From Bacilli bacterium (GTDB taxonomy: Bacteria > Bacillota_I > Bacilli_A > RF39 > UBA660): DNA of 60,914 bases. The notes beneath the pieces were generated by a model, which saw only the letters and a list, made by a program, of their open reading frames with translations, had not been told where the DNA came from and did no database searches. The stretch is from assembly GCA_017477845.1 (NCBI GenBank), contig JAFUTR010000009.1, positions 1 through 60,914 of the forward strand. The letters run 5' to 3'. Made by a program: the position numbers and the translations under genes. Positions 30,116 through 53,592 of this stretch are shown piece after piece (position 1 is the first letter of the stretch; each line of letters begins with the position of its first letter).

Positions 30116-30136
30116 CAAATCACAATGAATATTATA

Positions 30137-38256: not shown

Positions 38257-38366
38257 AAACTCACCCTCATTTCACATTTATGGCTGTATTATAACATACT
38301 TTACAGTAAAATAAAAGTTTTTTCTTTAAAATGAGATATCAATTGTGTGAAAAAAAAATTAATTAA

Positions 38367-38511: not shown

Positions 38512-38558
38512 GTTATTATATAAGGGTTTGCGGAGGTTTTAAAATTTTAAAAAGTCGT

Positions 38559-38579
38559 TTAGGTAGCAATTAGGTAGCA
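38559..38579 (+). repeat. attL-like direct repeat TTAGGTAGCAATTAGGTAGCA
   Basis: 20/21 identical to 51703-51723. Consists of two tandem TTAGGTAGCA units. The integrase gene starts about 75 bp away. Confidence 0.7.
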
Positions 38580-38654
38580 TTTTTCTTAATTTTTTATAAA
38601 TTATTGCATAAAAAAACAATGGAACTGATTTATTTTCAGCTCCATTGTTTCATT

Positions 38655-39890
38655 TTATAGACTTAAATCAAAATCATCTTTGTCATTATCATAATCATAT
38701 TCATTATCATAAGTTATATCATCTTCTATAATAGTATTAATATCATCATCTATTTCTTCTACTTTAATTTCCTCTTTCTTTTTATCATTTAGATTATCAA
38801 TAATACCAATTATATTATTTAACTTATTTTGAAACATATGAGAATAAGTATTTAATGTTTCATCAATTTTAGAATGACCAAGATATTTAGCGACAAGTGT
38901 TATATCAGCACCATTATTAATTAATAAACTAGCACAACTATGGCGAAAGTCATGAATCCTTATTTGTTTAACTCCTGCTAATACACAATTATTATTTTTT
39001 CTTCTTCTAATTACATCATCAGCAAGAGGAAACTCTCGACCAAAAACAAACCAATCATTAGAATAATTAGTATATTTCATTTGCTCGTTTTTGAGCCTTT
39101 TTAAGTCATCTACCAAGTCTTTTGTTAAAGGTAGTATTCTATTACTAGAGGTTGTCTTTGGACTTGATATGATATATTTAATACCATTTACATTATCAGA
39201 TAAACCTTTATTAATGTTAATGGTATTTTTTTCTAAATCTATATCATTCCAATTTAATGCTCTAGCTTCACCTTTACGAAGACCACAATAGTATAATGTT
39301 TCAAAAAATGTTTTATAAGTTAAATCTTTTTCTACGGAAATAAACTTATTAAATTCTTCAAATGTCCAAAATTGCATTTCTTTTTTTCTTTCATTTGGAT
39401 TAGTAAAGTTTGTCATTTTAGGATAAATTTGATTAAAATTAATTCCATACCATTTTGTTCCAAAATTCATAATTGTTTTTAAAAATTTATAAATATAATT
39501 TCTTGTTCTAGTTGATAACTTATATTTTAATATTTCTTTTCGCCATGCCTCATAATGTTGAAGATTAAATTCATTAACTTTAATATCATCAAGTAGTTTC
39601 ATATATCTCATTCTATCTAAATATGTATTAATAGTTGTTTGTTTAACTTTATCTTTTTGATAGTCATAAAATGCTAAATATAATTCTTTAAATGTCATAT
39701 CTTTACCTGAACGATATTTATCAAGTTCTAGGAAAAATAATCTTTCAGCTTCTTGAGCCTCTTTTTTTGTAAAGAACTTTTTAGATTTATATTGTTTCTT
39801 TTTTCCATTTAAATCATTATATCGGTCATAGAATATCCATTTACGACCATCTTTTGTCCATTCTTTTTGTCTTAATAATATAACAGCCAT
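38655..39890 (-). CDS. int: tyrosine recombinase/integrase
   Basis: C-terminal catalytic signature GLRKGEARAL, HDFRHSCASLLI, GHSKIDETLNTYSH. Probable start is MAVILL at 39890. Unusual acidic D/Y-rich C-terminal tail. Confidence 0.9.
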   Translation of the reverse strand: MAVILLRQKEWTKDGRKWIFYDRYNDLNGKKKQYKSKKFFTKKEAQEAERLFFLELDKYRSGKDMTFKELYLAFYDYQKDKVKQTTINTYLDRMRYMKLLDDIKVNEFNLQHYEAWRKEILKYKLSTRTRNYIYKFLKTIMNFGTKWYGINFNQIYPKMTNFTNPNERKKEMQFWTFEEFNKFISVEKDLTYKTFFETLYYCGLRKGEARALNWNDIDLEKNTININKGLSDNVNGIKYIISSPKTTSSNRILPLTKDLVDDLKRLKNEQMKYTNYSNDWFVFGREFPLADDVIRRRKNNNCVLAGVKQIRIHDFRHSCASLLINNGADITLVAKYLGHSKIDETLNTYSHMFQNKLNNIIGIIDNLNDKKKEEIKVEEIDDDINTIIEDDITYDNEYDYDNDKDDFDLSL

Positions 39891-39906
39891 ATTTATCACA
39901 TCCTTT

Positions 39907-41331
39907 CTATAATTCTCTATCATAATAATCTTTATCGTAATCATCATAGTCACGATAAACAATTTTATCGGCTAAATCTTCATAATCATCATAAGTTTCA
40001 TATTCATCAACTTCACGATGAAGAAGTTTATTAATAGCATTACACATCTTTTCAAATCGTAATTTCCATATTTCTATTTCTTCGTGTAATTTAGATTTTA
40101 AATATTGAATATTATTATTTAAAACATCAACTAATTCGTTTAATCTACCAATTTCCTTTTTTTGTTCTTTAATTTGTTTTTTCTGTTCAATAATTAAATT
40201 ATCTCTTTTAACAAGTTCTTCATTATTACGAAAGATAGTGTTTTCTTCTTGAAGTTTATCAATTTCTTTATTCAAAGTATTTATTTCAGTTTGTTGTAGT
40301 ATATTTTGTTGTTCTAAATTTTTAGAATAATCAATCATTTTTTCTACATCATCTTTACTATAACCAACTAAATTTTTCTTTGGATTAAGTATTTCTTTAT
40401 CTACCACATTATTCGCAGTTTTAAGGGCTAATTTTGCATCTTTAATAATAGATAAGGTATTTTCTTTTTCTAATCTTAACTCCTCTAATTCAGCCTTTTT
40501 TTCTTCAATATCATATTCTAATTTTGTTTGATGAGCGATATGAGCACCATTCTTACCTCGATCTAATTTAAAACCTTTATTAGTAATAAATTTATTAAAT
40601 GAATCTTGCATTTTGGCAAAGGATAATTGACCACCTTTGTCTTTCCAAAATTGGTCATTATTTAAAAAATTTCCTTTGACTTTTTCATAAACAATTTTTC
40701 CATTTTCATCTCGAAGTAGTTTAGGAACATATTTAATTTTTCCATCTTTGGTATAACCTTGTTCTTTAATTAGATTTCCATCATTATCTTTCATATAGCA
40801 TTTTCTTTTAACCTCATTTACGATAGGCATAAAATATGCTTGAAGATGTGGTGTATCTTCATCATAATGTATTTGAGCGAGAAGTATATTTTTTTCTCCA
40901 ACAAAATCTTTCAAATATTCCATACAACAATCAAAATAATAACTAACTGCATTTGGTATATCATCAGTAGATTTAATATCAGGTATTTTTACTATTTGAC
41001 CTTTCTTTTTTCCTGTCTTATAAGTTCTACCACTATCGACAAATTTCATTCCTAATCTTTCAAAAAATTCAGGACCACTTGTGAAAGTAATACCATTTAA
41101 TACATTAGTCCCTGATTTATTTAGATATTCAATGTTTCTTCTTTCCAAAGTTTTTTTAACTTCTTGATATAAATTTCTTTCACTTATCGAAACATAATCG
41201 ACATTGAATTTTGTTCTTTCATTATCATAATTACCTGAGCCTTTTCGCTTAGTCATTTCTATTCCAATATTATATAAATCTTTTTGCTTTAACTTAGTTG
41301 TTAATGTTAAAACTTGGTATCCATCATACAT
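39907..41331 (-). CDS. mob: MobV-family (Mob/Pre) relaxase
   Basis: HxDExxPH motif (IHYDEDTPHLQAYFMPIV) about 150 aa from the N-terminus. Long coiled-coil C-terminal half. Strong AAGGAGG RBS. Confidence 0.85.
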   Translation of the reverse strand: MYDGYQVLTLTTKLKQKDLYNIGIEMTKRKGSGNYDNERTKFNVDYVSISERNLYQEVKKTLERRNIEYLNKSGTNVLNGITFTSGPEFFERLGMKFVDSGRTYKTGKKKGQIVKIPDIKSTDDIPNAVSYYFDCCMEYLKDFVGEKNILLAQIHYDEDTPHLQAYFMPIVNEVKRKCYMKDNDGNLIKEQGYTKDGKIKYVPKLLRDENGKIVYEKVKGNFLNNDQFWKDKGGQLSFAKMQDSFNKFITNKGFKLDRGKNGAHIAHQTKLEYDIEEKKAELEELRLEKENTLSIIKDAKLALKTANNVVDKEILNPKKNLVGYSKDDVEKMIDYSKNLEQQNILQQTEINTLNKEIDKLQEENTIFRNNEELVKRDNLIIEQKKQIKEQKKEIGRLNELVDVLNNNIQYLKSKLHEEIEIWKLRFEKMCNAINKLLHREVDEYETYDDYEDLADKIVYRDYDDYDKDYYDREL

Positions 41332-41365
41332 TTAAACCTCCTTTTCTTAAAATTTTACAAATTTC

Positions 41366-41530
41366 AGGTCATTGATGACCTATCTCACTAGGGCATAGCC
41401 CATTCGTGAGTTTAGGGAGTTCCCTAAAAACCCCTTTGGCTTGCAATCAGTATAAACCTAAACACAATTTAGGATTTATCCTTTATGCAAGATTAAATAA
41501 TAACTATTCACCGAATACTTATTATTTAAT
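41366..41530. promoter_or_regulatory. cluster of inverted repeats upstream of mob (candidate oriT / origin region)
   Basis: AGGTCAT-TG-ATGACCT (41366-81), CTCAC..GGGC-ATA-GCCC..GTGAG (41385-41410), TTTAGGGA-GT-TCCCTAAA (41411-28), TTAAATAATAA/TTATTATTTAA (about 41492-41529). Locally G+C-richer than the surroundings. Confidence 0.45.
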
Positions 41531-41675
41531 GAATTATTAAAAGTGATTAATAATCATTTTAATAATTGTAAAAATATTCACTATCGCCACTTTCATTTTT
41601 CTTACGAAAAACAAAACGTGCCTCGTTCATTTTTTACTAAAACTTTTTCAAAAAAAGTTTCCAAAAATAGAGTGA

Positions 41676-42632
41676 TTATTCATCATAATCACTCATCGGT
41701 TCTTCATAATGAGCTTGATAAATTCTTTCAGTTCTTGTTCTTTTTAATGTGATTTTTAATCCCTCTTTTTCTAAATTTGTCATATTATTTTTTAACATTT
41801 TTCCAAATACTGACGGAGTAATTTGTAAATTTAATTTACTTGTTATCTCTGATACAGTAAAGACAAAATCCTTTTGTTTGATTGCATAATTTAGAAAAGT
41901 TAGAATATTATAATTTAAATCATCACATTCAAGTTCTGATACTTGAAAGTTTAAATTATCATCTCGTTTTAATATCAAATCTATTCCTTCATAATCTCGA
42001 CTTTCATATTTAAAGATAATTTTATTCTTAATATTTGAATCGACTTTTAATGCAATAATTCCATCAACCGAACCATCTATAGCAGTTGATCCTAGTGATG
42101 TATTATTCTTATTTAAATGATGAATTAATAAAATAGTGAAGTTATATCTTTTACATAATTCTCTAAATTCAGGAATAACATGTTGTCCAATATCTTGATA
42201 ATTATTAAGGTCATATCCACTATTAGTATCAATACCACTAAACATATCAATTATTACAAGTCGTCCTTTATAATTGATTGAAAAGTCTTGAAAATCTAAT
42301 TGTAAATCCATTAAATTTAATTTTCTTTCATTAATTTCTTGTTCTTTTAAAAAGAAATTATTATCATTAAACTCTAATTTCATTGTTTCAATTCTATTTA
42401 GTATTTGTGTAGAATCCATTTCTGTGCTAATATAGAGTACAGGAGATGAATTAGTTTCAAATCCTAAAAAATTATTGCCTGTTGCAACAGCATTGGCAAG
42501 TTGAAGGGCTAACAACGACTTGCCAACTTTCGGTCTAGCAACTAGGCAATATATTCCATTAGATTTCATAAGTTTATCGACTATGAAGTCTTTTTTTGTT
42601 TGACTTTTTCTCATATCACTAATGGTTTTCAA
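41676..42632 (-). CDS. RecA-like P-loop ATPase (AAA_25/RepA-DnaB-C-like)
   Basis: Walker A ARPKVGKS and Walker B-like LVIIDMF. TTG start 6 nt after AGGAGG. Confidence 0.7.
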   Translation of the reverse strand: MKTISDMRKSQTKKDFIVDKLMKSNGIYCLVARPKVGKSLLALQLANAVATGNNFLGFETNSSPVLYISTEMDSTQILNRIETMKLEFNDNNFFLKEQEINERKLNLMDLQLDFQDFSINYKGRLVIIDMFSGIDTNSGYDLNNYQDIGQHVIPEFRELCKRYNFTILLIHHLNKNNTSLGSTAIDGSVDGIIALKVDSNIKNKIIFKYESRDYEGIDLILKRDDNLNFQVSELECDDLNYNILTFLNYAIKQKDFVFTVSEITSKLNLQITPSVFGKMLKNNMTNLEKEGLKITLKRTRTERIYQAHYEEPMSDYDE

Positions 42633-42650
42633 TTTTATCCTCCTTTCTTT

Positions 42651-42890
42651 TTAAATTGATAATTCTTTTGCCATTTTTTGTAAGTATCCTATATTGATTT
42701 TTAAATAACTTACCACCTCGTTCATTGGTAAGTATTTTGTAGGAATAGAATAACCTTTTGAAATAAGTTCATCTTTTATTTTAGATTTGATTTTTAGAAC
42801 AGAACTTTTACTTAATCCTGTTAATTTCATCAAATCACTTACATCACACCATTGTTTTGATATAAGTTCAAGCGTTTCCTTTGCATTCAT
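42651..42890 (-). CDS. small HTH protein, putative excisionase/recombination directionality factor
   Basis: 79 aa. HTH-like DVSDLMKLTGLSKSSVLKIK. Placed at the head of the rep-mob-int gene string. Confidence 0.45.
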   Translation of the reverse strand: MNAKETLELISKQWCDVSDLMKLTGLSKSSVLKIKSKIKDELISKGYSIPTKYLPMNEVVSYLKINIGYLQKMAKELSI

Positions 42891-43175
42891 TTTGCCTCCT
42901 TTCTGTGTTCTAATAAGATGGTTTTAGCGTCACCAACAACTCCCTTTTAGGATGTATATATAGTTTTTAGCCATATATGTAACGAGGATATTAGTTAATT
43001 CACAACTCCCGTGCCAATAGGGTGAACAATTTGTGCCTTGCATTTATTTAACGAGTCGGAAAATATCGGCGAGGGCCAACTCTATGAAGTTGTCAAAGAA
43101 CGACTTTGAACTAAGAGCAATTATTTTCATCACCTCCAATCGAATTGCTCTCTAAAAAATAAGTTGGATAACATT

Positions 43176-43205
43176 TGTAAATGCAACTTATAAGTTTAAT
43201 TTACA
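43176..43205. promoter_or_regulatory. 30-bp near-perfect palindrome (candidate repressor operator)
   Basis: TGTAAATgcAACTTATAAGTTtaATTTACA. Lies in the divergent region between the xis-like gene and the XRE gene. Confidence 0.5.
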
Positions 43206-43254
43206 TCAAATTATTTTGTTTGTCAACTAAAAAGTTGAATTCTTTGTAAAAAAC

Positions 43255-43283
43255 TTGCAAAAAAGTCTAAATTAGTGTATAAT
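43255..43283 (+). promoter_or_regulatory. promoter of the XRE gene
   Basis: TTGCAA (43255-60), 17 nt, TATAAT (43278-83) with upstream TG. Confidence 0.6.
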
Positions 43284-43306
43284 CAATTTTGAAAGGAGTG
43301 AATAAG

Positions 43307-43810
43307 ATGAATGAAACAGTAGGTGAAATAATAGCAAAAGCTCGTGAAGAAAAAGGAATTTCTAAAAGGGAACTTGCTCGTATTGCTGATATAAGTGATA
43401 CAGAACTTTCTCGTATTGAATCTGGTGAGAGAGAATTTCCTAATCCTAAAACATTAAGAAAGATAAGTCAGCATATAGGAGTTAATTTTAATGATTTAAT
43501 GTATGCTGCTGGACTTGGTTTTAGTGTTTCACCCCTTAATCCATTTTTAATTGATTATTATTCTGGACTTAAAGGTGAAAAATTAGATGAGGCATTAATT
43601 AATACTCTTGGTAGTATTGATAATTGGAAAGAATTAGTTGACTCACTTAAAACAAAAATGGATAATGGAAGTTTATCAGATAGTGAAAAAGAAGTTATCG
43701 GTCAAACGATTGAAGATACTGAATATCAAATTAATACTGCAAATGAAATTGTAAAACTAATACATAGTGCAAAAACGAAAGAGAGGATAGAAAATGGTAA
43801 GAAAGGATAA
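43307..43810 (+). CDS. XRE-family HTH regulator
   Basis: HTH_3 signature IIAKAREEKGISKRELARIADISDTELSRIESGER. The ATG at 43307 follows AGGAG. Confidence 0.8.
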   Translation: MNETVGEIIAKAREEKGISKRELARIADISDTELSRIESGEREFPNPKTLRKISQHIGVNFNDLMYAAGLGFSVSPLNPFLIDYYSGLKGEKLDEALINTLGSIDNWKELVDSLKTKMDNGSLSDSEKEVIGQTIEDTEYQINTANEIVKLIHSAKTKERIENGKKG

Positions 43811-44237
43811 ATATATTAATTTAGCGATTATTGTTTCTAATATAGTGATGTTAATAGATGTAATACTTATATTTATTTTAAATAATAATGTTGTTTATTC
43901 ATTATATTGGTTATTAATTTTAATGATAATGCTTGCAAATACTTTCTTTATAGGTAAATGGACAAGAGATGGTAATAATGTAGAAAAAAAACAATCAAAA
44001 ATAATTCATAGATCTGTCGATGATGCTTTAATGATTGCAACAGGCATTTATTATTTATCGGCATTGGCATTTATGTTTATTAAAGAAATTAAACCTGAAT
44101 ATTCACAGAATATTTACTTTATAATTGCATTATATATACTAACAATAATTTATGAAGAACTTATATACTTACAAGTATATGGTGCAAAAAAAGAAACAAG
44201 AAAATTAATAGAAAAGACTTATAAAAAGAAAAAATGA
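43794..44237 (+). CDS. 4-TM membrane protein
   Basis: Overlaps the XRE gene end by 17 nt. Four hydrophobic helices. Confidence 0.55.
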   Translation: MVRKDKYINLAIIVSNIVMLIDVILIFILNNNVVYSLYWLLILMIMLANTFFIGKWTRDGNNVEKKQSKIIHRSVDDALMIATGIYYLSALAFMFIKEIKPEYSQNIYFIIALYILTIIYEELIYLQVYGAKKETRKLIEKTYKKKK

Positions 44238-44482
44238 CGGCAATGACAGGAAAAATCAGGTGGTACCCACCAAAAAAATGCTGTCATGCTGTCATTAATA
44301 TAATTTAAATCATTTAATGGTTCTGATTAATAAAGTTATTAAAATCTTTATTGCAGAGCTATTTTTTATATTTTAAATACTGAATATTGCTTTTTGTAAA
44401 AAAACTGTGCTATAATTATTTTGGAAATCGTAGGAATATTTTTGAAAACTTCCTACACTTTCCAAAGAAAGAAGGTATGTAT

Positions 44483-45025
44483 ATGATAATGACTTATAGT
44501 GATGCTTATAAAAAATATAAGAATGATTATGGCATAAATAAAGCCATGATGAATAATGAATTATTTAAAGTAGCAAAAGGTATGTATTCTGATAAAAAGA
44601 ATATTGATTTAATTGCAGTATATTCTAAAAAATATCCTAATGCTATTATTACACTTGATTCGGCTTTTTATTATTATAAATTGACCGATAATATTCCAAC
44701 AAAAGTAAATATGGCTATTGCAAGACATGCAAGACCAATTAAAGATGATGATATTATTGTTTCTTATATTGATGATGAAATAGTGGATTATGGTAAGACA
44801 GAAGTTTTAGTTGATGATGAAAAAGTTAATATATATGATAAAGAACGATTGTTAGTTGAATTGATTAGAAAGAAAAATCAAATGCCTTTTGATTATTATA
44901 AAGAATTAATATCTAATTATCGAAAAATTTCTGATGAATTGGATATGGCTAAAATCGAGAAATATATGGCATTATTTAAAAATGAGGTTAATATAGGTAA
45001 CAGTTTATTAAGAGAGGTATTTTAA
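44483..45025 (+). CDS. AbiEi-family type IV antitoxin
   Basis: N-terminal AbiEi_4-like segment TYSDAYKKY...ELFKVAKGMYSD. 1-nt TAATG overlap with the AbiEii gene. Start chosen 7 nt after GAAGG; the ORF-track start at 44387 is less likely. Confidence 0.6.
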   Translation: MIMTYSDAYKKYKNDYGINKAMMNNELFKVAKGMYSDKKNIDLIAVYSKKYPNAIITLDSAFYYYKLTDNIPTKVNMAIARHARPIKDDDIIVSYIDDEIVDYGKTEVLVDDEKVNIYDKERLLVELIRKKNQMPFDYYKELISNYRKISDELDMAKIEKYMALFKNEVNIGNSLLREVF

Positions 45026-45852
45026 TGAATATAGATGAATTAATTACTAAATATCGTGAAGAAGGATATCCTCTTGCTGATGCGAGATCTTCTGCATGCC
45101 ACGATATTATTTTATCTAAAATTTTTAAGAGTAAATTTAAAGAACACATAACTATTAAAGGTGGTGTAGTTATGCACAATATATCTAATTCAATGCGTAG
45201 AGCAACGCAAGATTTAGATATGGATTTTATTAAATATTCCTTAAAAGATGATTCTATTAAACAGTTTATAAGTAAATTAGATAAGGTTGACGATGGTATT
45301 AAAGTTGAAATTTTAGGAAATATTGAAGAATTAAAACATCAAGATTATTCTGGAAAAAGAGTTTTTATAAAAATATCTGATAATTATGGAAATTCACTAG
45401 AAAATAAAATTGATTTAGGTGTTCAAAAAGAGTTTGATATTGAACAAGACGAATACTACTTTAATTTAAATTCAATTGATGGTAGTATTTGCTTGTTGAT
45501 AAACTCAAAAGAGCAAATATTCACAGAGAAATTAAAATCATTATTAAAATTAGGCTTTAGATCTGGACGACATAAAGATTTATTTGATTTTTATTATTTA
45601 ATAAATGATGCTAAATTAGATAAACACAAATTACTTAAATGTATTGATGTTTTAATCTTTCAAGATGATAAAATGAGAGAGAATAGTATTAGTGATATTT
45701 ATTCAAGACTTGATGGTGTATTTTCGTCAAGAGTTTATAGAAGTAATTTAAATAACCCTAAAAATAATTGGTTAGATATTAGAATTGATGATGCAATAGA
45801 ATCTGTACTTAATTATGTAAATGAATTATCAGAAGAATTTGTTGCAATTTAA
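45025..45852 (+). CDS. AbiEii/AbiGii-family nucleotidyltransferase toxin
   Basis: 275 aa. Size, gene order and IKGGVVM...TQDLDMDF (NTase G-x-D-x-D-like) fit the AbiEii family. Confidence 0.6.
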   Translation: MNIDELITKYREEGYPLADARSSACHDIILSKIFKSKFKEHITIKGGVVMHNISNSMRRATQDLDMDFIKYSLKDDSIKQFISKLDKVDDGIKVEILGNIEELKHQDYSGKRVFIKISDNYGNSLENKIDLGVQKEFDIEQDEYYFNLNSIDGSICLLINSKEQIFTEKLKSLLKLGFRSGRHKDLFDFYYLINDAKLDKHKLLKCIDVLIFQDDKMRENSISDIYSRLDGVFSSRVYRSNLNNPKNNWLDIRIDDAIESVLNYVNELSEEFVAI

Positions 45853-45879
45853 AAAGAAATAGTATGAAACTTGCACATA

Positions 45880-46332
45880 CTATTTTTTATTTATAAATTT
45901 ATCCTTACTTCTACCTAACACCCAATCAATAGAATAATTACTAATTTTGCATAACTCTATTAATAAAGGACTTAATATTAAATACTTATTATTTTCATAA
46001 TTACTAATAGCTGATGAAGTAGTATTAAATTTACTTGCTAATTCTCTCATTGTTATATTTAAAGAATCTCTTATTTCCTTTAAATTAATAGATACTTGTT
46101 CTCTATTTAATTCTTTATTTGATTTAATATGTAATCTTTTATCGTTTAAACCTACAATATAATCAATATTAACCTCAAAGAATTCGGCTAATTCATATAA
46201 TCTTTTAGTTGCTATCGATAATTTCTCATTTTCCCATTCAGAATAAACTGATGGAGCAACGCCAATAATGTTAGCAACATCTTTCTTTAATAAATTTCTT
46301 TCATCCCTTAATTTTTCTAATCTCAAATTCAT
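45880..46332 (-). CDS. double-HTH XRE-family regulator
   Basis: Two HTH_3-like units: LRDERNLLKKDVANIIGVAPSVYSEWEN and IRDSLNITMRELASKFNTTSSAISNYEN. Confidence 0.75.
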   Translation of the reverse strand: MNLRLEKLRDERNLLKKDVANIIGVAPSVYSEWENEKLSIATKRLYELAEFFEVNIDYIVGLNDKRLHIKSNKELNREQVSINLKEIRDSLNITMRELASKFNTTSSAISNYENNKYLILSPLLIELCKISNYSIDWVLGRSKDKFINKK

Positions 46333-46449
46333 AATAACTCCCATATCTATAAGTTATTATGATATTAAATTCGGTTAATTTTAGCGTTTTTTCGTCATAT
46401 TTGAGCAAAGTGTGATATAATTGTATATAGAGTTGAGGTGAAAAATAGT

Positions 46450-46686
46450 ATGAAAAATGAAATTACAAAAGAAAAATATGAAGCAAATATTCATTTAAAT
46501 ACCTTATATGATGTATTAAGTGCATTAAGAGCTAATGGTATTAAACAATTCTATCCTGATGATATTAATGATGAAATTGATAGGATAATATCAAGAATAA
46601 ATAGCTATATTTATCACGGTCACAATGGATATGATGTTATTGCTGAAAAATGGTATTCTGAATTTACTTTTAAGAAAAACGATTAA
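46450..46686 (+). CDS. hypothetical protein (78 aa)
   Basis: GAGGTG RBS. Extended -10 TGATATAAT upstream. No family recognised. Confidence 0.45.
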   Translation: MKNEITKEKYEANIHLNTLYDVLSALRANGIKQFYPDDINDEIDRIISRINSYIYHGHNGYDVIAEKWYSEFTFKKND

Positions 46687-46817
46687 CTGTAAAAAATGTA
46701 AATTTGCTTTATATTTTTTGGTGGATTAAATTGATTATATATTTTATATATGGTACTATATTGTTGAGAAAAATAATTTCAGTGAAGTATTGGTAATTTT
46801 TTTTAAATGAGGTAAAT

Positions 46818-47651
46818 ATGATTGAAAGAATAATGAATTCAACAGAAGAAAATGTTGATGAGATAATTAAAACAATAATTAATGAATTAGACAATAAAGC
46901 AAATAAAGTTGAAAGATTAGGATTTTTAGATTCAATTAGTTCAAATCCGGTATATAAGGGATTTATTCCTCTTAATACAAGGATTAAGTATTCTAATTTT
47001 GGTGTTGAAGATTATAGTATGAAAACGACGGATTTTATATACGAATTTATTAAAAATATTAAAAAATATAATCTAACGAATAAAGGACAAATAATTCATT
47101 TTTTGGAATACTATATTAATACTTATTTTGGTTTACCTGGTGGTATCAGTAGAGAAACTTTATTCAATGACATTGCTTGGAATACAACTACAACAGATGA
47201 TGAATATTTTGCTGCTTTAGAGAAAAATGAAATTGGTATGTTAAAGAATAAACGAGCTGCACAATGTACTGAACGAAGTGCTGTGGCTCAACAAATATTA
47301 AGTGTATTAGGTTTTGAAACATTTTATTGTATGGGTTGTGTTGATTTAGGCAATAATCATCAAGAACCACATTGTTTCAATATTATTAAAAGAAAAAATG
47401 ATTATGCTTTGGTTGATTATAGTTGCCCAATTACAGAGTATAATGAAGATAATAGTGTTAGAGCATATTATCCTTTTATTGCAACACTATCCAATGATGA
47501 GTTTACTGATTTTTTGAATAACGGTGTAATTAAAAGTTTTACAAATTATAGTTATGAAATAAAAAATGGAAAAAGTGTAAGAATTGATGATGATAGTAGT
47601 AGGTCTTATGTGGTAGGACAATATGAAATAAAAAAAGAAAATCAAAAATAA
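46818..47651 (+). CDS. hypothetical protein with a transglutaminase/papain-like Cys-His-Asp arrangement
   Basis: RAAQCTERSAVAQQILSVLGFETFYCMGCV...HQEPHCFNIIKRKNDYALVDYS reproduces the G-x-C...H...D spacing of transglutaminase-like cysteine peptidases. No signal peptide. Confidence 0.45.
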   Translation: MIERIMNSTEENVDEIIKTIINELDNKANKVERLGFLDSISSNPVYKGFIPLNTRIKYSNFGVEDYSMKTTDFIYEFIKNIKKYNLTNKGQIIHFLEYYINTYFGLPGGISRETLFNDIAWNTTTTDDEYFAALEKNEIGMLKNKRAAQCTERSAVAQQILSVLGFETFYCMGCVDLGNNHQEPHCFNIIKRKNDYALVDYSCPITEYNEDNSVRAYYPFIATLSNDEFTDFLNNGVIKSFTNYSYEIKNGKSVRIDDDSSRSYVVGQYEIKKENQK

Positions 47652-47735
47652 TCTACTAAATTAATAAAAAAATGATAAAAAATGCGTAAATTTTTATGTA
47701 AATTTAGTATAGTTTTAAAATGTAAAAAAAAATTA

Positions 47736-47744
47736 TGGTATAAT
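47736..47744 (+). promoter_or_regulatory. extended -10 promoter element of the effector cassette
   Basis: TGGTATAAT lies about 25 nt upstream of the GGAAGGAG RBS of the first cassette gene. The -35 is weak. Confidence 0.45.
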
Positions 47745-47769
47745 TGATAATAGGAAGGAGAATTTTGAA

Positions 47770-48060
47770 ATGGGACGAGTTCATGTAGAAGAAGCAGCTT
47801 TAGTCAATCTAAAAAATGACTTTGGAACTGTTGGAGAAAGTTATAAAGCTAATTATACTAAACTAACTAATTTAATTAGTGAAATTACTTCTGGACATAT
47901 CCAAGGTGATCCTGCAAATGAATTATTGCAAAAATATGAAGAAAAGAAAGAAGCTTTTGAAAAGGTGTATGAAATGATTAATTCAACACAGGAATATGTA
48001 AACGGAAGAACAGAACAATTTGTTAATGATGTTGATTCATTAATGAAAAATATGAAATAG
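47770..48060 (+). CDS. WXG100/Lap-like small helical protein (96 aa)
   Basis: Size and helix-turn-helix layout fit. A central IQGDPA occupies the position of W-x-G. First gene of the coupled cassette. Confidence 0.45.
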   Translation: MGRVHVEEAALVNLKNDFGTVGESYKANYTKLTNLISEITSGHIQGDPANELLQKYEEKKEAFEKVYEMINSTQEYVNGRTEQFVNDVDSLMKNMK

Positions 48061-48069
48061 GAGGAAAAT

Positions 48070-48342
48070 ATGAATTTAACGATTTTACCAGACGCAGCTT
48101 TAGATGATGCAAAGAGTATTGACTCTATTGTTCAAGAAATAAGTAATAGTTTGGAGATATTGGATAAAGCAATTAAAAACAATATTCCTGAACATTTAGA
48201 AACAGAGTGGTCTGTTAAGTTATTAGAAAATTGGAATGAATACTATAGTGGAAATATTAAAAATGCAATGGCTGCAATGAATTTAAGTGCTTCTAACTTA
48301 AAAAGTGCTGTTGATATGGCTGTAAATTATAGTAAAATGTAA
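48070..48342 (+). CDS. second small helical T7SS-accessory-like protein (90 aa)
   Basis: 90 aa, predicted all-helical. TAGGAGG RBS 9 nt after the upstream stop. Confidence 0.4.
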   Translation: MNLTILPDAALDDAKSIDSIVQEISNSLEILDKAIKNNIPEHLETEWSVKLLENWNEYYSGNIKNAMAAMNLSASNLKSAVDMAVNYSKM

Positions 48343-48356
48343 AAATGGAGGATCAT

Positions 48357-48740
48357 ATGATTGATGAGTCATTATTATCAGTTGGTTCTTGTGTAAAAAT
48401 TGCAAATAACTCTAAAATGATTATGATAGCTGGTTATTTGCCTTATGATAATCAAAAAAAAATAATGTATGATTATATCGGTATATATCTTCCGATTGGT
48501 ATAAGAAAACCTAGACAAAAAATAGAAGTAAATAAAGACTATATTTGCTTTAAAAATAGTGATATTAAAAAGATTATTTTTATTGGTTATTCGGATAAAA
48601 AATCGGATTTTTATTGTAAATATTTATTAAATATTAAAAATAAAATTAGAAATATGAATACAGAGTTATCTGATGAAGTAGTAAAAAATATTTTGAAAGA
48701 TTCTTTACCTGATATAAAAAATATAAAAAGTGAGGTATAA
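48357..48740 (+). CDS. DUF4176-like protein, paralog 1
   Basis: LLSVGSCVKI...MYDYIGIYLPIGI...DIKKIIFIGYSD. Carries an extra C-terminal ~45 aa. Confidence 0.6.
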   Translation: MIDESLLSVGSCVKIANNSKMIMIAGYLPYDNQKKIMYDYIGIYLPIGIRKPRQKIEVNKDYICFKNSDIKKIIFIGYSDKKSDFYCKYLLNIKNKIRNMNTELSDEVVKNILKDSLPDIKNIKSEV

Positions 48741-48744
48741 ATAA

Positions 48745-49002
48745 ATGAATAATAAGATTTTGCCGATTGGTAGCATTATTAAAATGAGTAATAGTGATTT
48801 GTATTTAATGATTTATGGATATGCTAATAGCAAGAAAAACATAGATGGTGAATACTATGATTATTTTTGTTGTATTTACCCTGCTGGAATTAATGGTAAA
48901 GATTCAATATTAGTAAAAAAAGAAAAAATAGAAAAAATAATTTTTATAGGATATCAAGATTCAAAGTTTGAAAATTTTGTTGAACTTTTGGAACAGCAAT
49001 AA
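48745..49002 (+). CDS. DUF4176-like protein, paralog 2
   Basis: ILPIGSIIKM...YYDYFCCIYPAGI...KIEKIIFIGYQD. Confidence 0.65.
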   Translation: MNNKILPIGSIIKMSNSDLYLMIYGYANSKKNIDGEYYDYFCCIYPAGINGKDSILVKKEKIEKIIFIGYQDSKFENFVELLEQQ

Positions 49003-49016
49003 TGGATGGTGATTTA

Positions 49017-49265
49017 ATGAAAAAAACTCTACTACCTATTGGAACAGTTATAAAAGTATATAATAATGATAATAAATATATTGTTTTGGGAACATTCTGT
49101 AAGGTAGATAATAAAATGTTTACTTATTATGGCTGCATATATCCATATGGTTTAATACTCGATGATAGTGATGAAAGTAAAAAAATAAAAAAATATGATA
49201 TATATATAGATCAAAATGATATTGAGAAAATTATTTTTTTAGGAAATGTAAATAGTGAGGTATAG
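49017..49265 (+). CDS. DUF4176-like protein, paralog 3
   Basis: LLPIGTVIKV...FTYYGCIYPYGL...DIEKIIFLGN. Confidence 0.6.
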   Translation: MKKTLLPIGTVIKVYNNDNKYIVLGTFCKVDNKMFTYYGCIYPYGLILDDSDESKKIKKYDIYIDQNDIEKIIFLGNVNSEV

Positions 49266-49267
49266 TT

Positions 49268-49714
49268 ATGGCATATTCTCAAAGGTATTATGCTGCAGTG
49301 CAGGAAATTGATAATTTAAAAAAGCATTTAGCAGATTTGGATTCTGATTATGCAACATTGCACGAGTGCAAACAAAAATTAGCTTCTTGTAGTGTCCTTT
49401 TTGGTGATGTATCAACTCAATGTGATGATATAAATAGAGCATTTAATAGAGGAACAATAGAAGGAAGATATGATGCTTGTGGAATAGATTTTAAAACTAA
49501 AAAAGATGTTTTTGAATATTTAGAGATTATTGGTTCTTCAACAAACAAGTTTAACTCATCTTGTAATGATGTTAAAACACAAATAGACGAATTCGGTGCA
49601 TCATTAGATGGCTATTGCAAAGATATAGCGAATGAAGCACAAGTTGTTTCAGATAAGATAAATAGCTTGATGTCCCAATTAGTATATTTAATGGAGCCAG
49701 AACCACCTAAATAA
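49268..49714 (+). CDS. helical Cys-rich protein (148 aa), possible effector partner/targeting subunit
   Basis: Coiled-coil-like N-terminus and 7 Cys. 2-nt gap from the upstream gene and 22 nt before the toxin candidate. Confidence 0.4.
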   Translation: MAYSQRYYAAVQEIDNLKKHLADLDSDYATLHECKQKLASCSVLFGDVSTQCDDINRAFNRGTIEGRYDACGIDFKTKKDVFEYLEIIGSSTNKFNSSCNDVKTQIDEFGASLDGYCKDIANEAQVVSDKINSLMSQLVYLMEPEPPK

Positions 49715-49736
49715 TATAGTATATATGGAGAGTTAT

Positions 49737-51035
49737 ATGAGTGATGTATTTAGTAGTAATATTAGCCCTTCCGAAATGGCTGAAATGAATATGGAAGATG
49801 CCAAACAAATTGATGTTGCTTTGGGAGTTATAATTAATGAGATGCCAAGTCGGATTGCTTTTGCAAAAAATATGCTTGATGATGTTGCAACAAGCATTAA
49901 GTCATTAAAAACATTAAATCTAGGTTTTAATATAAATGGTGAAGTTGAAAATTTAGCTAAAGATTTTGATACCTTTTCACAAGAAGTTATAAATAATGCA
50001 AGTTATTATGAATTAAATATTGTAAAAATAATAGATATATTTGATAGACAAAATAGTTTAGATGGTTCATCAACTATTGATAATAATTATTTTAAGAGTT
50101 TACCATTTCTTGGTGCAATGCTATTAACTGTATTAAAGTATGCTACTAATACTAGACGAGGTGATTTAGCTCCACAAATTGCAGTTGATGTTTCAGGCAA
50201 TTGGATGGATAGGGATTTTAATGAAGCTATTGGTGCAGTTGCATATAATGCAACTGAATGGCTTCCTTGGAGCTCTTTAGGAAAAAATGGTGTTGCTGTT
50301 GCAGCATTAATAACAGTTGAATCTTTATATGATTATTTAAAATTAGGAAATAAGGATCCTAGAAATGTAAGAATTAATTTAATAAATGCAGCAGGTGATG
50401 GTGTTAAACTTCTTGGTGGAAATTTGATAGCAGATTATGTGGCAGTTGATGCTGGTACAGCAGTATCAACATGGGTAGCGACTAAATTGGCAGGTTTTGG
50501 TGGTGCAAAAGTAGCTGGAGGATTAGCTGGTGGAGCGGTAGGAGTTGGTATTGTTGTATTGGGTGAAGTGACAATCGATTTAGTTGTATCACCATTGGTT
50601 GATGAAATAACAGGTGAATCATTTGTTTATATGACATCAATTCAAAAAAATGGTGGAGAAAGGCGATTATATTCAAATTATGTAAATCAAATTCAACATA
50701 GTTATATTAGTCCACTTGGTAGAACAACATCTCTTTATGGTATAACTGTTTCTCCTGAATATTGTCACGAAATGGCACAAATCGATCCTGTAGGAACATT
50801 ATTAGGATTAGATGAATATGGGTATAGTGAAACTTCATATAGCACAACACAATTAGAAAGTTATATATCTGATTTAAAAGCAATTCCAAAAGATAGTCCT
50901 AATTTTCAAGAACAAGTTGATCAATTAACTGCAAATGCGCTGATTGGTGATGGTTCAGGATATGGAACAGATTATATTAGAGATTTATTATATGATTTAG
51001 ATTTTGATCCATATAGTTATGCTATTAATAATTGA
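49737..51035 (+). CDS. candidate secreted membrane-active toxin with a glycine-zipper region
   Basis: ~115-aa helical N-terminal domain (contains TLNLG). Hydrophobic Gly/Ala-rich core LAGFGGAKVAGGLAGGAVGVGIVVLG (nt ~50388-50594) with a GxxxGxxxG pattern. Polar C-terminal ~140 aa. Confidence 0.5.
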   Translation: MSDVFSSNISPSEMAEMNMEDAKQIDVALGVIINEMPSRIAFAKNMLDDVATSIKSLKTLNLGFNINGEVENLAKDFDTFSQEVINNASYYELNIVKIIDIFDRQNSLDGSSTIDNNYFKSLPFLGAMLLTVLKYATNTRRGDLAPQIAVDVSGNWMDRDFNEAIGAVAYNATEWLPWSSLGKNGVAVAALITVESLYDYLKLGNKDPRNVRINLINAAGDGVKLLGGNLIADYVAVDAGTAVSTWVATKLAGFGGAKVAGGLAGGAVGVGIVVLGEVTIDLVVSPLVDEITGESFVYMTSIQKNGGERRLYSNYVNQIQHSYISPLGRTTSLYGITVSPEYCHEMAQIDPVGTLLGLDEYGYSETSYSTTQLESYISDLKAIPKDSPNFQEQVDQLTANALIGDGSGYGTDYIRDLLYDLDFDPYSYAINN

Positions 51036-51048
51036 TAAAGGAGAATGT

Positions 51049-51381
51049 ATGAATTTAGATGGTAAAAATGATGATTATTTTGAAATAAAAAAAATAAGCA
51101 TTGAAGAATTTGATAAACAAGCGAAAAAAGAAAAAGCTGGTGTATTAAGGCGTAGTATAGCAGTTGCTGTAATGAGTGTTGCTACTTCTGCAATACTTGG
51201 AACAAGTGGCTACAATCCATTTTTAGCATTTGCTCAACTATACACTCTACCAATAGCTATGGTAGTTATTTCGGATATAAAAATATTATCAAAATTGAAG
51301 CAAAAAAGAATGCAAATTATGAATGAATCAAGATATGATAATATGGAATCTGAAAATATTAATAGAGGTAAAAAATTATGA
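51049..51381 (+). CDS. 2-TM membrane protein, candidate immunity protein
   Basis: AAAGGAGAA RBS. TM segments SIAVAVMSVATSAILGT and FLAFAQLYTLPIAMVVISDI. Lies immediately downstream of the toxin candidate. Confidence 0.45.
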   Translation: MNLDGKNDDYFEIKKISIEEFDKQAKKEKAGVLRRSIAVAVMSVATSAILGTSGYNPFLAFAQLYTLPIAMVVISDIKILSKLKQKRMQIMNESRYDNMESENINRGKKL

Positions 51382-51656
51382 TAGAAATTGGTGATGAATT
51401 TGATTTTAAGGGTGAAATTGGTATAGTATGTTTTAAAGGAAATTATTACAATCAGGATTATATATGTATTGCTTTTGAAAAAGAAGGGAAATTTGGCATT
51501 TACAAAGTTAAATATGAAGAAGATAAATATTTAGTAGCTGAAGAAAAAGATAAGGAAAAATGTGCATATGTTTTATCTGAATTTGTGACAGATGATATTA
51601 TCGAACATGGTGAAATAGATAAATTAGTAGAATTATTAAAGAAAAATGATGAATAG
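51378..51656 (+). CDS. hypothetical small acidic protein (92 aa)
   Basis: ATGA overlap with the upstream gene. Last gene before attR. Confidence 0.45.
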   Translation: MIEIGDEFDFKGEIGIVCFKGNYYNQDYICIAFEKEGKFGIYKVKYEEDKYLVAEEKDKEKCAYVLSEFVTDDIIEHGEIDKLVELLKKNDE

Positions 51657-51702
51657 TATTTATATTTAAATGAATATAATTGAATATTTGACTATAATCA
51701 AA

Positions 51703-51723
51703 TTAGGTAGCATTTAGGTAGCA
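51703..51723 (+). repeat. attR-like direct repeat TTAGGTAGCATTTAGGTAGCA
   Basis: 20/21 identical to 38559-38579. Confidence 0.7.
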
Positions 51724-51838
51724 AAATTTTAAAACTATAAAGTGAGAATATGATTTTATTTAAATTTTAGTAATTTAAAATGATAATAAAATAGACTTTT
51801 TATAAAAAAATGATATAAAAAAATGGCTCACTGAAAAG

Positions 51839-51878
51839 CCCCCTGAAGACACTGTCGTGAGACAGTGTCATTTTTTTT
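51839..51878 (+). terminator. intrinsic terminator preceded by CCCCCTGAAGA
   Basis: GACACTGTC-GTGA-GACAGTGTC followed by A and T8. Shares an 11-nt 5' motif with the terminator at 38470-38511. Confidence 0.7.
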
Positions 51879-51933
51879 ATTTTTGATGTGTTTTATTAAA
51901 AAAAAGAGACATACTACTAATAAGGAGGAAAAT

Positions 51934-52125
51934 ATGACACAAAAAGAACTATTATATGTAGAAGATGCTGTTAATCATGAAAAAGATATTATTGCCATTG
52001 TAAATGATACAATTAACAATCTTGAAGATATAAAATTAGTTAAATTTTTAAAAAAAGAGTTAAATAATCATATGGCATATAAGAATGAGCTATTAAAATT
52101 ATTGGAGGAGATGTCAAATGAATGA
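51934..52125 (+). CDS. small helical protein (63 aa) upstream of the CotF-like gene
   Basis: AAGGAGGA RBS before MTQKELLYVED. Overlaps the next gene by 8 nt. Confidence 0.5.
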   Translation: MTQKELLYVEDAVNHEKDIIAIVNDTINNLEDIKLVKFLKKELNNHMAYKNELLKLLEEMSNE

Positions 52126-52366
52126 TAGATTATTGTTGGAAAACTATTTATTAGTTTTAAAAAGTACTGTAGAAGTATATGTACATGGAACACTTGAAAG
52201 TAGTAATAAAAATGTAAGAGAAACATTAAAAGCTGGGCTTGATGAAACTATGAAACATCAAGCAAATACATATGACTTAATGGCTCAAAATGGATGGTAT
52301 GTAATTAGTAATGTAAAAGCTAATGAAATAAATAAAACACTAAATAAAGTTAATAAAAATAATTAG
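52118..52366 (+). CDS. CotF-family spore coat protein
   Basis: LLLENYLLVLKSTVEVYVHGTLESSNKNVRETLKAGLDETMKHQANTYDLMAQNGWY fits the Coat_F pattern. Confidence 0.6.
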   Translation: MNDRLLLENYLLVLKSTVEVYVHGTLESSNKNVRETLKAGLDETMKHQANTYDLMAQNGWYVISNVKANEINKTLNKVNKNN

Positions 52367-52435: not shown

Positions 52436-52836
52436 TTTAATAAAGAAAATGTACATATGAGGTAGAATAAAATTAATAATACGAGAACACCAGAAGAAAA
52501 AGAAAAAATTGTTAATAAATATTATAATTTAGTATATGATAGATGGAAAATACTTAGATATGGATTAGCATCTAGGAAAGGAGCAATAAGTTCATATTAT
52601 GATGAATTAAATCAAGTTTTAAGCAAAATAAAAAAGAAAAAATTGAATCTCCAATCATTCTTCATAATGACGTTCCAAATCTAATTAAATTATTAAACCC
52701 CAATTCAATATAAAATCGAATCATAGTTTTAATGGTTTTAAAGAATTCTTTTTTGTAAAATTTTATAATTATTATTTTTTAATATGGAAACTTTATATTA
52801 TTTGTGATAACATTTTATTGTAGAGGTGGTTTCAAA

Positions 52837-53592
52837 ATGGCTCAGAACAGATTTATAAATAATGATGATCAATTTTATAATCAAAACAATCAATATAATG
52901 GTCAAAATAATAATCCTTATTATGATCAAAATCAGTACTACAATATGAATAATCAATATAATAATAAGAATAACCAATATTATAATCAAAATCCTTATTA
53001 TAATCAAAATAATAATTTTTTAGCTGATTCTAAAAGTAGTAAGAAAAAATTTAATTTTAAATTTGACAAGAAAGTTCTTATTGGAGTTTTAATAGCTTTA
53101 GTAGTAATAGTTGCAGTCATACTTTTTATTGTATTAGGTGGATCTAAAGCAGAAGAAAAAAAGCCTGAAAATACAAACACTGAAGATAGAATTATTGGTG
53201 ATAGTACTTATGGATATATAACTGTTCCTAGTGATTGGTTGAAATTTGAAGATATTGAAAATGTTAGAGGAATTCAATATACTGATAGAAATGGAGATTA
53301 CATTATAACTATGGACGCTGAAAAGACAAGCACAATAACCGCTCAAAATTGGTATAATGCAATGATAGATAGATTTAAGAAAAATGGAGTAATAAATATA
53401 AGTAGCGAAAATGTAAATGTTGATAAATATAATGCTTTTCAAGTATATGGGTTCCATGAAGAAAGTAAAGTTTGGCTTTCAGTATGGTGTTTTGAAACAG
53501 AAGATGGAATAACGCATTATATTGGTATTGAAGGTCCTGATTATAATAATGAATATTTTAATTTAATATATACTTTTAAAAATACAAAATAA
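52837..53592 (+). CDS. membrane protein with an N-terminal Q/N/Y-rich low-complexity domain
   Basis: GAGGTGG RBS. About 60 aa of NQYNGQNNNPYYDQNQYYNMNNQYNNKNNQYYNQNPYYNQNNN, one TM helix (VLIGVLIALVVIVAVILFIVLGG), and an extracytoplasmic ~140-aa domain. Confidence 0.65.
   Translation: MAQNRFINNDDQFYNQNNQYNGQNNNPYYDQNQYYNMNNQYNNKNNQYYNQNPYYNQNNNFLADSKSSKKKFNFKFDKKVLIGVLIALVVIVAVILFIVLGGSKAEEKKPENTNTEDRIIGDSTYGYITVPSDWLKFEDIENVRGIQYTDRNGDYIITMDAEKTSTITAQNWYNAMIDRFKKNGVINISSENVNVDKYNAFQVYGFHEESKVWLSVWCFETEDGITHYIGIEGPDYNNEYFNLIYTFKNTK

Follow-up and report, generated by a model that had tools for sequence, protein, structure and literature searches.

What would a set of genes built like a type VIIb secretion system (T7SSb) effector operon do on a small mobile element, with no secretion gene nearby? 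The question is raised by nine genes at positions 47770-51656 of a 60,914-nucleotide contig (JAFUTR010000009.1, assembly GCA_017477845.1) of a Bacilli bacterium of the RF39 lineage. The whole contig, with a G+C content of ~26%, was analyzed and is referred to as the window. We give a probability of roughly two in three to the reading that this cassette is a T7SSb-style effector operon, which has no secretion genes near it and belongs to the cargo of an integrase/MobV element. Such a cassette had been proposed from the sequence alone (here, the original prediction), and three results bear the proposal out: three of its proteins were confirmed as DUF4176, the product of its first gene is WXG100-like, and the gene family is linked to EssC in three loci elsewhere.

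An open reading frame (ORF) listing over 46.5-53 kb returned nine plus-strand ORFs exactly where they had been predicted, and their tight packing was also confirmed. The genes are as follows:

47770-48060, plus strand: gene 1, 96 amino acids (aa), WXG100-like helical hairpin with I-Q-G in the turn (sub-threshold profile matches, AlphaFold2 model, Foldseek)
48070-48342, plus strand: gene 2, 90 aa, helical partner with a conserved T-x-W-S ... W, always directly after gene 1
48345-48740, plus strand: gene 3, 131 aa, DUF4176 type A with a C-terminal helical extension
48745-49002, plus strand: gene 4, 85 aa, DUF4176 type B
49002-49265, plus strand: gene 5, 87 aa, DUF4176 type C
49268-49714, plus strand: gene 6, 148-aa helical protein (family alignment; no PDB relative)
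49737-51035, plus strand: gene 7, 432-aa putative membrane-active toxin with an N-terminal hairpin, a zipper, and a C-terminal domain
51049-51381, plus strand: gene 8, 110 aa, two hydrophobic segments (hydropathy peaks at about 32-50 and 57-77)
51378-51656, plus strand: gene 9, 92-aa acidic soluble protein, isoelectric point 4.5

With the best-supported starts, the intergenic gaps from gene 1 to gene 9 are 9, 2, 4, -1, 2, 22, 13, and -4 nt, and most of the genes have a Shine-Dalgarno site of their own. The best start of gene 7 is at 49737, where it is preceded by GGAG and yields the same length as an identical database protein (P0001); for gene 8, the ATG at 51049 (AAGGAG Shine-Dalgarno site) was preferred over the TTG at 51004. 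DUF4176 types A and C both end with S-E-V, and the corresponding codons AGT GAG GTA constitute the Shine-Dalgarno site of the next gene (48729-48744 and 49254-49267). Therefore, the conservation of these residues at the protein level probably reflects translational coupling. Upstream of gene 1, a consensus scan detected the extended -10 site that had been noted before, TTAAAA-18-TG-TATAAT (47715-47744, plus strand), and this site is nearly base-for-base identical in another copy of the cassette (L001, see below). Since promoter-like sites are not enriched in such AT-rich DNA, this candidate promoter is plausible but unproven. The first strong intrinsic terminator 3' of the operon (51848-51869, plus strand) overlaps the proposed right attachment region of the mobile element.

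Genes 3 to 5 had been called DUF4176-like, and indeed all three exceed the Pfam cut-off of 25 bits for this family (PF13780), with 56 bits (E=3.9e-15), 70 bits (E=1.2e-19), and 47 bits (E=3.2e-12), respectively. They belong to three orthologous sets (A, B, and C), and both the set and its order are kept in every locus. A profile of 15 DUF4176 sequences matched PDB entry 9DCS, the small, C-lobe-only DUF4176 protein of Streptococcus intermedius, with E=8e-11, but the large LtcA proteins (9DCR and 9MNO) only with E of about 0.2 (0.19 for 9DCR). In size, too, the three proteins fit the small subclass (70-130 aa), with gene 3 one residue over. DUF4176 proteins are T7SSb toxin chaperones: large ones are placed between lap genes and LXG toxins, while small ones are associated with membrane-depolarising toxins and were suggested, not shown, to bind membrane-inserting helices (PMC12478183). 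Profile matches and size confirm genes 3 to 5 as true DUF4176 proteins of the small subclass.

Gene 1 had been singled out as a small helical protein with IQG at the place of the WxG of WXG100 proteins. Modelled by AlphaFold2 with the family alignment as input, it is a two-helix hairpin (helices 8-40 and 47-95; pLDDT 79.8), and it thereby has the size and shape of a WXG100 protein, about 100 residues arranged as helix-turn-helix. The predicted turn lacks W-x-G and in its place carries I44-Q-G46, in which I44 and G46 are nearly invariant among 50 family members. When the model was compared to the PDB with Foldseek, the top five matches were chains of Geobacillus EsxA (probability 0.84-0.98; E=0.1-0.24), followed by Bacillus anthracis EsxB, ESAT-6/CFP-10, and other Esx pairs. 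Sequence profiles pointed in the same direction, below threshold: gene 1 matched the Pfam WXG100 family with E=0.029 (15.1 bits; cut-off 27.3) and NCBIfam TIGR03930 with E=0.016 (15.4 bits; cut-off 44.85). Furthermore, in this family of 86 clusters, WXG100 was the Pfam family matched by most gene-1 relatives (26 of 50; best E=1.7e-4, near full length).

Gene 2 is 46-51% identical to its counterparts in more distant and sister cassettes (see below) and had no family match in Pfam, NCBIfam, PADLOC, or PHROGs; among PDB sequences, none of genes 1, 2, 6, 7, and 9 had a significant match. Genes 1 and 2 together provide the two small alpha-helical, WXG100-like factors that are found upstream of a T7SSb toxin. 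Of the profile comparisons proposed for this cassette, the one with DUF4176 was positive; WXG100 stayed below threshold, and LXG, DUF3130, DUF3958, DUF5082, and DUF5344 (the last four being the named Lap families) were unmatched. Because of the missing Lap matches, we describe genes 1 and 2 as working like targeting factors and claim no family membership for them. For gene 1, profile and predicted fold support a function like that of a WXG100/Lap protein; gene 2 is proposed as the second targeting factor.

The gene-1/gene-2 family is genetically associated with the T7SSb core. A second tier of gene-1 homologs (40-53% identity), whose annotated names are only "hypothetical protein," heads other cassettes, in which gene-1-like and gene-2-like genes precede those for a 124-134-aa helical protein, a large variable protein, and DUF4176, in this order. 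One of these tier-2 islands additionally encodes proteins with a W-x-G motif and an NlpC/P60 protein whose N-terminus is helical. The essC gene is present in three loci of the family:

L100: cassette 4.3 kb upstream of the gene for a 1523-aa genuine EssC (TIGR03928, E=2e-291, 970 bits; cut-off 778)
L175: essC (60% identical to that of L100), an 83-aa gene, the gene-1 and gene-2 homologs, DUF4176 types A, B, and C, a 159-aa gene, and a large gene cut by the contig end
L172: essC after a tier-2 island

The L175 locus is a sister cassette with the layout of the window directly behind essC, and its 159-aa protein is a remote homolog of gene 6 at the same position (hhalign 83%, E=1e-5). All three EssC-bearing contigs have 27-29% G+C, like the window. 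These loci bear on an alternative that the original prediction had left beside its first one, namely a T7SS-independent system that re-uses T7SS-type parts. In the form considered here, the module would serve the mobile element in abortive infection or addiction: its chaperones and partners would hold a membrane-active protein inactive in the cytoplasm, and this protein would kill the cell upon phage attack or loss of the element. Because the gene-1/gene-2 family is linked to EssC, in L175 by a sister cassette directly behind essC, this alternative has become less likely. It is also at odds with the fact that T7SS export is the only setting in which DUF4176 proteins and WXG100-like pairs have been found to date (PMC12478183, PMC10801868).

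Some further features of the EssC loci were observed. The gene-2 homolog of L175 (6404-6700) contains one in-frame stop and may be a pseudogene, an assembly error, or a case of recoding. The 83-aa gene lies directly 3' of essC in L100 (11793-12044) and L175 (5745-5996), at the position expected for YukD/EsaB, and the two copies are 61% identical. It had no NCBIfam or PDB match, and YukD/EsaB was left as a guess. Genes upstream in L172 were considered as additional T7SS core genes and rejected: one is a glycosyltransferase gene, and a 1429-aa protein had no PDB match.

The order of all nine genes recurs in at least nine other contigs, and this is true of every contig that is long enough. The neighbours differ between the copies:

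L001: cassette in another mobile element, which has two different integrases; HEPN and DUF4379 genes around the cassette
L002: cassette adjoining a two-component system
L004: cassette adjoining an isochorismatase gene
L006: cassette between murD and secG
L007: cassette 3' of secG

DNA homology among the copies begins ~70 bp upstream of gene 1 and does not continue beyond gene 9. Every copy is equipped with a promoter region of its own, and some also with a terminator. Half of the copies are in plain chromosomal contexts (murD/secG, two-component system), which argues against a module in the service of a mobile element. When the window was compared to L001, genes 1 and 2 were found to be 99% identical, whereas genes 3 to 9 showed identities of 73, 80, 72, 64, 67, 54, and 84%, in this order. 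This drop indicates a recombination break after gene 2. Over all pairs of copies, genes 6, 8, and 7 diverge fastest (mean pairwise identity 42%, 53%, and 58%), while genes 1, 2, 4, and 9 have means of 74-76%. Moreover, in L157, a complete sister cassette, genes 1 to 5 are kept and a gene-9 homolog is last (33% identity, hhalign 98%), but positions 6 to 8 are occupied by proteins of 152, 431, and 122 aa that have no significant BLAST similarity to those of the window; the protein at the gene-8 position again has two transmembrane (TM) segments. Because of their fast divergence and their replacement in L157, we regard genes 6, 7, and 8 as the variable toxin core. This is the pattern of polymorphic toxins, as far as sequence comparison goes. 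The variation among relatives concerns whole genes, with positions 6 to 8 exchanged and no shared N-domain (hhalign probability <3% between N-termini). Likewise, hhalign gave probabilities of <3% for the gene 7 N-terminus against the N-termini of the tier-2 large proteins and against genes 1, 2, and 6, for gene 6 against the tier-2 middle proteins, and for gene 9 against DUF4176.

Gene 7, previously described as a 432-aa protein with a helical N-domain and a glycine-zipper core, is the putative toxin. Its AlphaFold2 model is poor overall (pLDDT 54.8), with two N-terminal helices (11-55 and 70-104) paired as a hairpin, a hydrophobic middle part that is helical, and a C-terminal domain at ~340-432 that is modelled with confidence. 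An unbroken [GAS]xxx[GAS] chain, of which GGLAGGAVG is a part, runs through residues 228-269 and is, as a pattern, a glycine zipper in a hydrophobic helix. Judged from its sequence, the N-terminus has no signal-peptide character. As had been noted, it is short and not an obvious LXG domain: the LXG family (PF04740) was not matched at E<=1 by gene 7 or by any of nine family members. The family is rare, with 9 clusters in 5.8 billion and 6 representatives in 1.84 billion proteins, and a profile search of the latter set with either end of gene 7 recovered the family itself only. There was no match in Pfam, NCBIfam, PADLOC, PHROG, or PDB, no relative in species-representative genomes (scanned with a single peptide pattern), plasmids, or viral contigs, and in any search no sequence or fold homology to the glycine-zipper toxins TelE, TspA, and EsxX. 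A Foldseek search with the model was uninformative, since the model confidence is too low. The original prediction was to fall if the three paralogs were not DUF4176 and the small proteins had no WXG100-like fold, or if the 432-aa protein was an ordinary housekeeping membrane protein; the DUF4176 identity and the fold were found, and gene 7 did not prove to be such a protein. Its zipper and hydrophobic middle make it a putative membrane-active toxin, the membranes of other cells being its presumed target.

The neighbours of gene 7 also agree with their earlier descriptions. Gene 6 is helical and Cys-rich, with six Cys residues, four of them invariant across the family; its only Pfam match, to a YwqH-like family, is weak (E=0.048), and we propose that it is a toxin-specific partner. 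For genes 6, 8, and 9, no meaningful match was obtained in Pfam, NCBIfam, PADLOC, or PHROGs. The 2-TM product of gene 8 is the best candidate for the immunity protein, presumably located in the membrane, because it diverges along with the toxin. The acidic product of gene 9 (21 clusters only) is 76-88% identical across loci. Because it is the most conserved component and recurs beside a different toxin, it is a poor candidate for specific immunity, and we consider it a putative conserved accessory factor.

The tier-2 large proteins (435-1013 aa; L091, 11114-13756; L094, 11104-13875; L097, 11094-14135; L100, 3446-4753) share one plan: a helical N-terminus is followed by a hydrophobic stretch rich in Gly and by a long low-complexity region rich in S, T, P, and N, and the C-terminal part consists of a single TM segment and a charged tail. 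Such an architecture would be strange for a secreted toxin and points to surface-anchored proteins linked to the T7SS. The cassette of the window could also export a complex other than a toxin, namely a membrane or cell-surface assembly, for example for adhesion or envelope remodelling, with the same targeting and chaperone parts. The surface-protein-like linker and anchor of the tier-2 protein would fit this idea, as would the lack of a recognisable enzymatic toxin domain in the 432-aa protein and the conservation of gene 9, which is too high for a classic immunity protein. We nevertheless consider it unlikely: the joint rapid divergence and replacement of genes 6 to 8 is what toxin-immunity arms races typically produce, depolarising T7SS toxins with a similar zipper are known, and the patchy, rare, and mobile distribution fits a competition factor.

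The location of the cassette inside an element with integrase and MobV genes, also part of the original prediction, was confirmed. Domains were assigned with Pfam:

38470-51849: proposed integrative mobilizable element (IME), ~13.4 kb, with the cassette as its last cargo
38655-39962, minus strand: tyrosine integrase (Phage_integrase)
39907-41331, minus strand: MobV relaxase (Mob_Pre), 24-35% identical to annotated MobV relaxases
41676-42632, minus strand: AAA_25/DnaB-like protein
45025-45852, plus strand: AbiEii nucleotidyltransferase toxin gene
46818-47651, plus strand: 277-aa gene upstream of the cassette, without a family match

The element also contains helix-turn-helix (HTH) genes, and its ORFs lack any type IV secretion system domain in Pfam. 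An 11-bp direct repeat, CCCCCTGAAGA, is present in the window in just two copies, at 38470 and 51839 (0.15 occurrences expected with one mismatch allowed), and each copy is followed by a hairpin and a T-run. Just inside each end is a doublet of a 10-bp motif, TTAGGTAGCA-n-TTAGGTAGCA (38559-38579 and 51703-51723). Both motifs are absent from the other cassette loci. With an integrase and a relaxase, no conjugation apparatus, and flanking direct repeats, the region has the makings of an IME, the exact borders of which are deduced from the repeats. The borders were not confirmed by comparison, because gene order diverges and no empty insertion site was found: the SufB-anchored loci of 80 related genomes (uncultured gut and rumen Bacilli known as metagenome-assembled genomes [MAGs]; SufB 90-92% identical) share only SufB, SSB, and an HTH gene with the window, so that common gene order extends only to the HTH gene at 53.6 kb, and the left-flank genes are absent from these loci.

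The junctions themselves differ. The left one (38340-38515) resembles a small transcript that has its own promoter, is rich in hairpins, and stops at a terminator; in the right one (51820-51880), only the 3' part of it recurs, consisting of a hairpin, CCCCCTGAAGA, and a terminator, and the stems differ in sequence. Such an arrangement would agree with insertion at the 3' end of a gene for a small RNA. Two T-box leaders were the sole Rfam matches in the window, and the transcript-like left junction had no family.

Further cargo of the element was noted. The AbiEii gene is preceded by an overlapping gene for a 212-aa protein without a Pfam match, presumably an AbiEi-type partner (region 44387-45852, plus strand), and the two look like a type IV toxin-antitoxin/abortive-infection pair. 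The 277-aa gene is 96% identical in L001 (7088-7921), a different mobile element, and is absent from the chromosomal copies of the cassette. By eye, its product shows a Cys...His...Asp arrangement (QCTERS ... PHCFNI ... LVDYS) reminiscent of transglutaminase-like or papain-like cysteine peptidases.

The element context is where a T7SS-independent module draws its support: the cassette shares the element with the AbiEii toxin gene and HTH regulators, the L001 copy has HEPN, DUF4379, and integrase genes around it, none of the closest copies has a T7SS core gene nearby, and EsxX-type zipper toxins are toxic from the cytoplasmic side as well. Searches with PADLOC and PHROGs returned only a DUF4176-like phrog, on which grounds a known defense system or phage module was rejected. 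With no PADLOC match of substance, nothing in viral contigs, and the EssC linkage described above, we hold such a module to be decidedly unlikely.

As predicted, the window contains no secretion-machinery genes: Pfam scans of 50 ORFs across it detected no FtsK/SpoIIIE (EssC), EsaA, EssB, or YukD domain. The only ORFs of >1000 aa encode IleRS and a protein with DUF285 repeats. Beyond the element, the following features were found:

3452-3650 and 29936-30125, minus strand: two full-length T-box leaders upstream of the IleRS and LeuRS genes (Rfam, 112 bits each)
16407-21158, minus strand: 1583-aa protein with at least nine DUF285 repeats (Pfam, E=2.5e-137)
52804-53592, plus strand: 262-aa protein whose N-terminus is extremely rich in N, Q, and Y, with one TM segment; no family match for its C-terminal domain

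DUF285 repeats are typical of surface proteins in mycoplasma-like and low-GC Bacillota. The 262-aa gene and two small genes (51935-52366) are absent from otherwise syntenic relatives; therefore, the variable region may extend past the proposed right end of the element.

Three traits of the cassette had been flagged as unusual: the toxin N-terminus, the distance from any secretion gene, and the mobile location. The first still stands. The other two are ordinary, because LXG toxin operons commonly lie at a distance from the T7SS core and are carried by prophages, skin-type elements, and plasmids (PMC8321402). In Bacillus subtilis, prophage-like element 6, SPbeta, skin, and plasmid pBS32 harbor such operons, every one of which requires the yukE operon far away. 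They resemble the cassette in their distance from the core and their mobile location, but their toxins have canonical LXG domains and enzymatic C-termini, and the operons contain no WXG100-like genes, relying on the single YukE of the core.

The TelE operon of Streptococcus gallolyticus (Gallo_0559-0565) comprises genes for two Laps, a DUF4176 protein, TelE, a 6-TM protein, and two DUF5085 proteins including the immunity protein TipE. This seven-gene operon has the layout of the cassette, with two Laps, DUF4176, toxin, membrane protein, and soluble proteins, one operon serving one toxin. TelE differs in having an LXG domain of ~200 residues and a location just downstream of the ess core, whereas the toxin of the window has no LXG signal and resides on a mobile element. 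The cassette, in turn, has three small DUF4176 proteins instead of one, an additional Cys-rich protein of 148 aa, a membrane protein with two rather than six TM segments, and no DUF5085, and outside DUF4176 no component shows sequence similarity. TelE and EsxX share the [GAS]xxx[GAS]-type zipper pattern with gene 7.

In the TelA/TelB-Lap-Ltc systems of S. intermedius (LapA3/LapA4, LtcA, and TelA), a WXG100-like pair is likewise encoded upstream and is followed by a DUF4176 chaperone. The Ltc chaperone binds a non-globular hydrophobic or amphipathic region between the N- and C-terminal domains of its toxin. Ltc proteins are large and two-lobed (200-250 aa), unlike the small, C-lobe-only proteins of the window, and the named Lap families are not matched by the proteins of the window. 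An FxxxD motif was not evident when the aligned sequences of the window were inspected by eye.

The EsxX/TspA-type toxins of Staphylococcus aureus also combine a zipper-type membrane-active region with adjacent small membrane and soluble proteins, and this toxin class is typically associated with small DUF4176 genes. They possess LXG domains and have no sequence relationship to gene 7. Their immunity is compartment specific (soluble ExiAB and polytopic ExiCD; TsaI/DUF443), while the immunity roles in the window are deduced from divergence only. Compared to all these systems, the cassette is new in its LXG-less toxin with a short N-terminal hairpin, in gene-1 and gene-2 families that the known Lap and WXG100 profiles do not cover, in a fixed triad of small DUF4176 proteins where a large Ltc is usual, in the extra Cys-rich partner, and in the block exchange of positions 6 to 8.

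Several observations weigh against reading the cassette as a T7SSb effector operon. There is no T7SS core gene on the 61-kb contig or flanking the nine closest copies of the cassette, and EssC adjacency was seen in only 3 of 102 family loci (46 of which span at least 8 kb), none with this exact toxin; such a proportion fits several effector cassettes per genome and one core locus. Scanned singly, none of 50 gene-1 family members reached the WXG100 cut-off, and genes 1 and 2 match no named Lap family in Pfam. The Foldseek E-values of gene 1 are weak (0.1-3), as expected for a short hairpin. In gene 7, no LXG or known trafficking domain was detected with Pfam, NCBIfam, the profile search of 1.84 billion proteins, or PDB, and its N-terminal hairpin of only ~95 residues is modelled with low confidence. 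Finally, the zipper is by itself no proof of pore formation.

Under the effector-operon reading, we propose that genes 1 and 2 encode a pair of ~90-aa WXG100-like hairpins that would bundle with the N-terminal hairpin of the toxin, as Lap proteins do with LXG, and that the bundle would be presented to EssC. In the cytoplasm, the three different small DUF4176 chaperones may cover the zipper helices and thereby keep the toxin out of the producer's own membrane. Fast-evolving gene 6 would act as a toxin-specific partner, either an adaptor or a cytoplasmic neutraliser. After export, the zipper region of gene 7 would insert into the membranes of competitor cells; gene 8 would confer immunity at the producer's membrane, and gene 9 would contribute as a conserved accessory factor. 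The operon would rely on a T7SSb encoded elsewhere in the host genome and would spread among T7SSb hosts as cargo of the integrase/MobV element.

If the host had no T7SS, a genuine effector kit could also be stranded there as inert cargo. The element is mobile and the host lineage of uncultured low-GC gut Bacilli is represented by MAGs only, both of which would suit this scenario. The nine intact reading frames and the preserved Shine-Dalgarno sites and translational coupling argue against an inert kit, and EssC is encoded in family-bearing contigs of the same GC range and habitats, so that stranding appears improbable to us.

More specifically, though as a tentative proposal that we do not yet favor over its negation, the effector operon may stand for a class of T7SSb substrates that lack LXG, occur in uncultured low-GC gut Bacilli, and have not been described so far. 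A short N-terminal hairpin of such substrates would be read through a lineage-specific I-x-G WXG100-like protein, a W-S partner, and a Cys-rich adaptor, the fixed small-DUF4176 triad would handle a membrane-inserting toxin, positions 6 to 8 would be exchanged as a block, and IMEs would move the kit. A more radical version, in which the kit works without any T7SS, is less likely.

To our knowledge, T7SSb toxin export is understood almost wholly through LXG domains and the four Lap families of cultured streptococci, staphylococci, and bacilli. The cassette would represent the same operon logic, built from parts that current profiles miss, in a lineage of the gut and rumen for which metagenomes are the only source. 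It would be a test case for the function of small DUF4176 proteins and for the minimal N-terminal signal accepted by EssC-type machines. If the reading holds, surveys based on LXG and WXG100 profiles arrive at too low a number of T7SS effectors for uncultured Bacillota, and small mobilizable islands carry whole effector kits that include targeting factors and chaperones of their own.

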